Assembly: GCA_048939015.1 (NCBI GenBank)
Contig: JBHLPW010000046.1
Span: 1 to 42,947, forward strand
Source of the DNA: Promethearchaeota archaeon
GTDB lineage: Archaea; Asgardarchaeota; Lokiarchaeia; Sigyniarchaeales; SOKP01
DNA length: 42,947 nt
Direction: 5' to 3'
Part shown: positions 8,206 through 8,898 of the stretch, in pieces
Layout: each line of letters starts with the position of its first letter
How positions within the stretch are numbered: position 1 is the stretch's first letter
Translations under genes and position numbers: made by a program
Notes under the pieces: generated by a model
What the model was told of the DNA's origin: nothing
What the model saw: only the letters and a program-made list of their open reading frames with translations
The model's database searches: none

Positions 8206-8580
8206 GTTTGTGTATCACATTTATATTCTAACATTAAGAATAAGCTTATTGATAATTAATAAAAATTGTTCTTTAAATATTTTTTGTTTAGGAAGTTTAA
8301 TATAAAATTTTGGAAAATCTAAGTAAAAAATTGAACAAACTTTTATAGAATTTAATAATTAAAACTTGCCTTTATTTAGATCATTAAGTTTCTATTATAC
8401 ATGATTTTAAATTTGAAATTCATAAAATTTAGCATTGAAAAAACTAATATATTGAAACACTATCGATTTTATCAAAGATTCTTTCCGAGATAAAAAAAAG
8501 ATTTTTATAAGATTTAATTCTATTATTTTTTAGAACTAAATTTTAAAATGTTTTAATAATAAAGGTTGTGATAAGACAAC

Positions 8581-8898
8581 ATTAAAGACGACGAGATTTG
8601 TCCTATATGTAGTTTTCCAAAAGAACTATGTATATGTGATAGTTTGAGCGCTGATGAGCAACAAATAATAATCTCAAACGATAGGAGAAAATGGGGCAGA
8701 GTTGTTACAGTAATCACATTCGTTGGAAATTTTGATGTAAATTTAAAGAATATTTTAACAAAAGCTAAAAAGAAATGCGCTTCTGGTGGAACTGTAAGAG
8801 ATAATGTAGTTGAACTCCAGGGAGATCATAGGTTTAAGTTGAAAAAATTCTTGATTGACCTTGGATTCCCAGAAGAAAATATTCTTATTCAAGAGTAA
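8581..8898 (+). CDS. sui1: Translation initiation factor aIF1/SUI1, probable ATT start
   Basis: RRKWGRVVTVI, KKKCASGGTV, VELQGDHR. The archaeal-type N-terminus EICPICSFPKELCICD lies in frame upstream of the ORF-track TTG at 8644 and is bounded by TAA at 8572-8574. Confidence 0.9.
   Translation: MKDDEICPICSFPKELCICDSLSADEQQIIISNDRRKWGRVVTVITFVGNFDVNLKNILTKAKKKCASGGTVRDNVVELQGDHRFKLKKFLIDLGFPEENILIQE

Follow-up and report, generated by a model that had tools for sequence, protein, structure and literature searches.

A candidate AUU start codon on the aIF1 gene of a Lokiarchaeia genome and its possible role in negative feedback

The gene for translation initiation factor aIF1 (SUI1) in the window, which is the whole stretch of 42,947 nucleotides analysed here, raises the questions of where its translation begins and whether the start site limits synthesis of the factor. 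The initial annotation had proposed that initiation occurs at an AUU codon and that this start serves autoregulation by the start-selection factor. We compared the locus with those of close relatives and of other Asgard archaea, and surveyed the use of similar start codons throughout the genome to which the window belongs (G000; G+C content 29.8%).

Reading frame and leader of the aIF1 gene

The aIF1 frame on the + strand reads TTG(8566) TGA(8569) TAA(8572) GAC AAC ATT(8581) AAA GAC GAC GAG ATT(8596) TGT(8599) and ends with TAA at 8896–8898 (Table 1). A canonical in-frame start is not available, as two stop codons (8569 and 8572) are followed by no ATG, GTG or TTG up to the first Cys codon; the sequence agrees with the initial annotation on this point, and also on the presence of a Cys motif in frame 5' of the annotated TTG. 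The mechanical open reading frame begins at that TTG (8644), encodes 84 residues and lacks the motif EICPICSFPKELCICD, whereas translation from 8575 yields this knuckle followed by the SUI1 domain. NCBIfam family NF002096 matches the frame with 113.3 bits (cut-off 98) over profile positions 2–101 of 102, and its alignment begins at codon 8590; thus, the stretch 5' of TTG 8644 is coding. The match to Pfam SUI1 (PF01253) scores 65.8 bits (cut-off 25.5). Both a protein query and a family query returned this gene as the single aIF1 match in the genome.

Table 1. Features of the aIF1 locus (window coordinates)
Feature	Position	Strand	Basis or remark
Imperfect Shine–Dalgarno site AGGTTGTGAT	8563..8572	+	GTGAT pairs with AUCAC of the 16S 3' end; GG pairs past a 2-nt mismatch
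In-frame TTG TGA TAA, closing the frame just 5' of aIF1	8566..8574	+	TGA 8569 in 81/81 relatives; next codon TAA/TAG in 41
GTG mini-ORF, five codons, other frame (GTG ATA AGA CAA CAT TAA)	8568..8585	+	Stop overlaps the aIF1 start (ATTAA); function doubtful
ATT, probable initiation codon	8581..8583	+	ATT 78 and ATC 3 of 81; sole fixed near-cognate codon between stop and first Cys
aIF1/SUI1 coding sequence, 105 codons + TAA (from the probable start)	8581..8898	+	PF01253, NF002096; NCBI 105-aa MKDD… proteins in relatives
Zinc-knuckle codons CPIC-x6-CIC, CPICSFPKELCIC	8599..8637	+	Sequence; Cys codons only TGT/TGC among relatives
TTG, start of the 84-aa mechanical ORF, internal Leu codon	8644..8646	+	Relatives TTA 70, TTG 5, CTA 5, CTG 1
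SUI1 domain	8656..8871	+	PF01253 over residues 28–99 of the translation starting at 8575

The encoded protein carries the archaeal N-terminal zinc-knuckle pattern CX2C-x2-P-x3-C-phi-C, with four Cys residues that are invariant in the 81 relatives described below and are predicted to bind zinc; further motifs are GGT, ELQGDH and RRKWG, the last of these in a basic loop. [quoted passage not shown] The characterized factors of M. jannaschii, P. abyssi and S. solfataricus (PMC6237735) are similar in length (∼102–105 residues) and share the CX2C…CxC knuckle, RRKWG, GGT and ELQGDH; they differ in the knuckle itself, which is CxxCGLP in these proteins and CPICSFP here. No non-canonical start was found in the literature for the aIF1 genes of these three species.

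The leader contains a Shine–Dalgarno-like (SD-like) element, AGGTTGTGA, at 8563–8571, located 9 nt before ATT 8581, in agreement with the initial annotation. The 3' end of the 16S rRNA, taken from a genome of the same genus, is GGATCACCTCC; GUGAU of the leader pairs with it over 5 bp and the site as a whole matches at seven of nine positions, 8–9 nt from the ATT. In a genome count, GGTGA or TGTGA elements preceding ATG genes have a modal spacing of 6–7 nt, so the 9 nt of aIF1 is longish. Of 81 distinct relatives, 80 contain the motif GGTTGTGA, always 9 nt before the ATT. It was rejected as a general regulatory or start motif, since nearly all of its 74 genome copies are away from starts. RNAalifold, applied to 18 diverse sequences, detected no conserved RNA structure at the SD/start region (−2.44 kcal/mol), the only helix being located inside the knuckle codons; a GGUUG/CAAC pairing is seen in the window alone and is not conserved in relatives.

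Several features surround the gene. A TATA-box-like sequence, TTTTTATAAG, lies at 8503–8512, ∼70–78 nt 5' of the ATT, and is moderately conserved among relatives. Directly 3' of the aIF1 stop, an inverted repeat TTGAAT/ATTCAA with a 5-nt A loop (8899–8915) is followed by T-rich sequence and may represent the transcript end. The divergent gene located 5' of aIF1 (7678–8205, − strand) encodes a Rab/Ras-like small GTPase; its ATG, with GTGAT 7–8 nt upstream, is retained by 68 of 71 distinct relatives.

Conservation of the start region and choice of the initiation codon

Sampling of the aIF1 gene covered 22 species within the same genus and, at ≥80% protein identity, 80 species-level genomes, and gave 81 distinct 5' regions. 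The codon at 8581 is ATT in 78 of these and ATC in the remaining three, and from the stop to the first Cys all 81 lack ATG, GTG and TTG in frame. An ATG at 8581 in close relatives, which the initial annotation had named as one observation that would speak against its proposal, is thus absent from the whole set. TGA 8569 is kept in all 81 and is followed by TAA or TAG in 41; four species contain a further TAG one codon before AGY-ATT. Readthrough from TTG 8566 can therefore be ruled out, given an invariant TGA and then TAA or TAG in half of the species. The two codons 5' of the ATT differ in amino acid among the relatives and include stops, whereas from the ATT onwards only third-position or conservative changes occur: AAA is present in 81/81, followed by acidic codons and then by the Cys codon TGT or TGC. 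The period-3 pattern of conservation starts at the ATT.

A sequencing error or a pseudogene is ruled out by ∼100 independent assemblies with the identical arrangement. In one relative with a single-contig 'complete' genome (G006:C1), the 5' end and the 3' part of aIF1 are 350 kb apart (near 1,032,000 and 1,385,100) on opposite strands; a run of N borders each of them (100 N next to the 3' part), with an overlap of ∼16 nt between the two, which indicates a scaffolding misjoin. This 'split' aIF1 is an assembly artefact and not a split gene.

The same alignment bears on the possibility that only an 84-residue protein without the zinc knuckle is made from TTG 8644, or that the start of the gene carries damage or a sequencing mistake. 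No canonical codon comes earlier than TTG 8644, it has GTGAT 3 nt before it and the 84-residue form is the one in the protein collection for the contig. However, TTG is found at this position in only 5 of 81 relatives and its occurrence as a canonical start codon in the window is therefore a coincidence; the 21 codons upstream of it are under codon-level purifying selection, and the recurrence of the arrangement in independent assemblies excludes a sequencing error. We regard this reading as barely credible.

An alternative initiation site is ATT 8596, the second such codon, which encodes the Ile immediately in front of the first Cys. Some NCBI records do use it (99–101 residues, MCP…), and the codon is ATT in 71 of 81 relatives. 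It lies 23 nt from the SD, however, and varies among ATT, ATA and ATC as an ordinary Ile codon would; the four codons that precede it change synonymously and continue to encode Lys and acidic residues. Other genera of the family (58–66% protein identity) are informative here: a GTGA-type or GGAAGG motif is followed after 8–9 nt by ATT, and this spacing is fixed while the distance from the ATT to the first Cys ranges from six to eight codons. A start at 8596 is very unlikely on these grounds. With a fixed spacing from the SD to the first ATT, and a second ATT that is variable and remote from the SD, the start is placed at 8581, giving a 105-residue protein.

A third alternative is initiation at the GTG (8568) inside the SD-like motif, translation of a five-codon mini-ORF and then reinitiation or a shift into the aIF1 frame at ATTAA. 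Of the 81 relatives, 78 retain both the GTG and the overlapping TAA, but the SD and ATT-AAA themselves account for this conservation. The GTG has no SD in front of it at a usable spacing, CAT/TAT-TAA does not form a slippery +1 site, and the three ATC species have lost the TAA but retain an intact gene. A +1 frameshift or coupling from the mini-ORF is accordingly unlikely, and we give this route little credence.

Public annotation already contains the longer form. In relatives, NCBI lists 105-residue proteins that start with MKDD… under the name 'YciH', i.e. with the ATT start and without comment, and Prodigal-type calls are 84 residues long. The ATT-start aIF1 protein is therefore already in public annotation, and no description of the start itself was found in the literature. 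Comparison (ATT or ATC in all relatives, and the spacing rule in other genera), together with this annotation, strongly supports the AUU initiation put forward in the initial annotation, and we conclude that aIF1 of this genome very probably starts at AUU 8581.

The genes flanking aIF1 at the loci of the same species set retain ATG in 68 of 71 and 76 of 82 distinct sequences. This indicates selection on start codons at the locus, with ATT as the selected state for aIF1. The gene of a fidelity factor has a suboptimal initiation site here, and this site is conserved. The conservation is probably the result of selection, with the caveat that the ATT of rubrerythrin is likewise conserved in the genus.

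ATT, ATA and ATC starts in this genome and in other Asgard archaea

ATT, ATA and ATC (collectively ATH) are alternative initiators of NCBI translation table 11. We counted SD-preceded in-frame positions near the upstream stop of coding-like ORFs over the whole genome, and obtained 302 for ATG, 89 for TTG, 25 for GTG, 56 for ATT, 46 for ATA and 20 for ATC. Control codons of like frequency gave 0.004–0.006 matches per position. The ATH excess is ∼72, compared with 418 canonical positions, and corresponds to 14.8% of SD-led starts. A stricter count, requiring at least 12 coding-like codons 5' of the first canonical start, gave 29 ATT, 21 ATA and nine ATC, and three each for AAT, TAT and TTA. Pfam domains start at residues 1–8 after the ATH codon in two Usp proteins, RagA-like and Ras-family GTPases, ApbA, ETF-alpha with a ferredoxin domain, transketolase, rubrerythrin and DUF134, and every Pfam-checked ATH gene would be shortened by use of its first canonical codon. 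About 70–110 genes of this genome have an ATH codon behind an SD (examples with a GGTGA-type site are on contigs C99, C72, C32, C100, C115, C5 and C33). AUU starts are extremely rare in E. coli, in contrast to the ∼15% of SD-led starts that are ATT, ATA or ATC here. ATH starts being common in this genome, the AUU start of aIF1 is unexceptional and aIF1 of this lineage cannot reject AUH strongly. The assumption that the start is exceptional, which underlay the initial annotation, therefore fails for this genome, in which at least ∼70 ordinary genes start with ATT, ATA or ATC.

These counts raise a rival to feedback: AUU 8581 may be one of many SD-directed AUH starts under a relaxed choice of start codon, giving a low constitutive rate, with any feedback not selected. 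This appears possible, although we do not favor it. Besides the abundance of ATH genes, it draws on the behavior of individual genes within the genus. Rubrerythrin keeps GGTGA-N6-ATT in most of ∼25 close genus orthologues and ApbA keeps ATH in five of five. Other genes drift among ATG, TTG, GTG, ATA, ACG and CTG, which suggests that near-cognate codons work well here. Three genes whose starts are near-cognate (ATT, ATA or CTG) in the present genome proved labile. The transketolase-C start is ATG in most species, ATT in two, and GTG and TTG in one each. For the RagA-like GTPase the start is ATG in ten species, TTG in seven, GTG in two, ATA in three and ACG in two, with a few unclear. ETF-alpha (N-terminal ferredoxin domain) has, 6 nt after AAGGTGA, CTG in nine species and TTG in seven; because of this alternation, ETF-alpha of the present genome may use CTG, rather than the ATA next to it, as its start. 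The stability of the aIF1 start is extreme but not unique, and turnover evidence for special selection is mixed. As an observation in its own right, the homologous start of the RagA-like GTPase flips among ATG, TTG, GTG, ATA, ATT and ACG inside one genus, with GGTGA-N6-ACG in two species.

Three points speak against relaxed codon choice as the full account. A canonical aIF1 start was never seen in the 81 distinct sequences or in several further genera. Any residual discrimination of aIF1 against AUU would yield feedback automatically. Finally, aIF1 also starts at ATA in Asgard families in which ATH starts are rare, as follows from the wider surveys.

At the order level (154 genomes, 131 with an aIF1 match) the starts are graded: ATT is nearly universal in the family of the window and ATA is found in two genera, TTG or GTG in several genera, including that of the complete genome G032, and ATG in a sister family and in the genus to which the complete genome G042 (6.0 Mb) belongs. 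Among 201 genomes of the Asgard phylum, 30 loci belonging to other classes revealed ATG in some eight families and GTG in some four. In two other families aIF1 is found at AGGAGG-N9-ATA with no canonical in-frame start, so that an alignment of sui1 5' ends over Lokiarchaeia and other Asgard archaea, as the initial annotation had suggested, brings out ATT or ATC in all close relatives and ATA in these two families. An alignment of 17 Asgard aIF1 proteins revealed nothing diagnostic in the basic loop to account for relaxed stringency.

In one genome of the two ATA families, from another Asgard class, the same counting procedure applied to 608 kb gave 205 canonical SD-led starts and an ATH excess of ∼1.5 (∼0.7%); relative to the rest of that genome the aIF1 start is exceptional, unlike the AUU start here. 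The ATH excess is ∼2 of 45 in a genome with a TTG-started aIF1 and 0 of 13 in one with an ATG-started aIF1. The occurrence of aIF1 at ATA where ATH starts are rare ties the near-cognate start to the gene, and it is therefore not a mere by-product of lineage-wide ATH use. This comparison, in which three other genomes were sampled, argues for selection specific to the aIF1 start. The data also hint at a co-occurrence, in the family of the window, of heavy ATH use and an aIF1 that starts at AUU, which with only three genomes is a lead and not a result.

Some further loci were noted in these surveys. In another Asgard family (G155:C46), aIF1 has no ATG, GTG, TTG or ATH at the expected place, and GGAAGGTG-N7-CTG suggests a CTG start. 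In the genome with rare ATH starts described above, a TruA-like gene (G180:C9 at ∼46,546, + strand; N-terminus RYAFKLAYLGTKYSGYQR) appears to start at ATA, 8 nt after GGAGG, with its first canonical codon 128 codons downstream. Some genomes of the family of the window, but not the present genome, contain a second SUI1 paralogue with ∼63% identity. In this paralogue the GAGGTGA motif is perfect, its GTG lies in frame, and ATT or ATA comes 8 nt further on; the copy at G007:C18 contains in-frame stops.

Possible feedback by aIF1 and its biological meaning

In the proposed mechanism, the single aIF1 gene would be translated from AUU 8581, positioned by the imperfect SD (GGUUGUGAU) 8–9 nt upstream, and its product would be the full 105-residue factor including the zinc knuckle. 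The start region would be weak in three respects: the codon is near-cognate, the SD contains mismatches and the spacing exceeds the modal value. Since aIF1 is expected to destabilize initiation complexes on near-cognate codons, an increase in aIF1 would lower initiation at its own AUU, resulting in negative feedback and homeostasis. In vitro, aIF1 of S. solfataricus excludes AUU mRNAs from the 30S complex (PMC4705826). Archaeal aIF1 favors mRNAs with a good SD context, a point that its authors liken to the autoregulation of eIF1 (PMC6237735). Our literature search found no paper on a non-canonical aIF1 start, on aIF1 autoregulation or on widespread ATH initiation in Asgard archaea.

The logic has counterparts in the other two domains. 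Bacterial infC, which encodes IF3, has an AUU start and is subject to translational autorepression (Butler et al., 1987, as summarized in PMC4705826). As for aIF1, a start-codon proofreader is encoded behind a conserved AUU and the proposed feedback logic is identical; IF3 is, however, an unrelated protein, and feedback has been demonstrated for infC and is inferred for aIF1. Eukaryotic eIF1 has an AUG in poor context and is autoregulated (Ivanov et al., 2010, as cited in PMC4705826 and PMC6237735). eIF1 and aIF1 are orthologues (SUI1 fold, PF01253), and in both the gene of a stringency factor has a suboptimal initiation site. They differ in that the AUG of eIF1 is weakened through its Kozak context under scanning, whereas aIF1 has a near-cognate codon, the position of which is set by an SD. 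Within Lokiarchaeia, the other ATH genes (∼70 in this genome) resemble aIF1 in having a GGTGA-type SD followed after 5–9 nt by ATH; aIF1 stands apart from them in its mismatched SD, in its spacing above the modal value and in a near-cognate start that extends to lineages that hardly use ATH.

The feedback loop of the initial annotation thus finds support in the exclusion of AUU by the S. solfataricus factor and in near-cognate aIF1 starts where such starts are rare, and is weakened by the abundance of ATH starts in this genome and by a rubrerythrin ATT that is about as stable. We consider an SD-directed AUU start at 8581, combined with negative feedback by aIF1, to be the best explanation overall, with the balance of probability standing level. 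That the feedback is real and has been selected can be held with slightly less assurance, at or just short of an even chance. It is rather unlikely that in this Lokiarchaeia family the AUU start keeps aIF1 at a low, self-limited level.

For annotation, gene finders restricted to ATG, GTG and TTG cut aIF1 to 84 residues, with loss of the zinc knuckle, and dozens of other proteins in these genomes are truncated likewise. The interest for the translation field is tempered by the genome-wide ATH starts and by the hypothetical nature of the feedback. If such feedback does operate, each of the three domains would have equipped the gene of its start-codon proofreader with a deliberately poor start site (IF3 in bacteria, eIF1/aIF1 in eukaryotes and archaea), and the archaeal case would be found in the Asgard archaea, the lineage nearest to eukaryotes.
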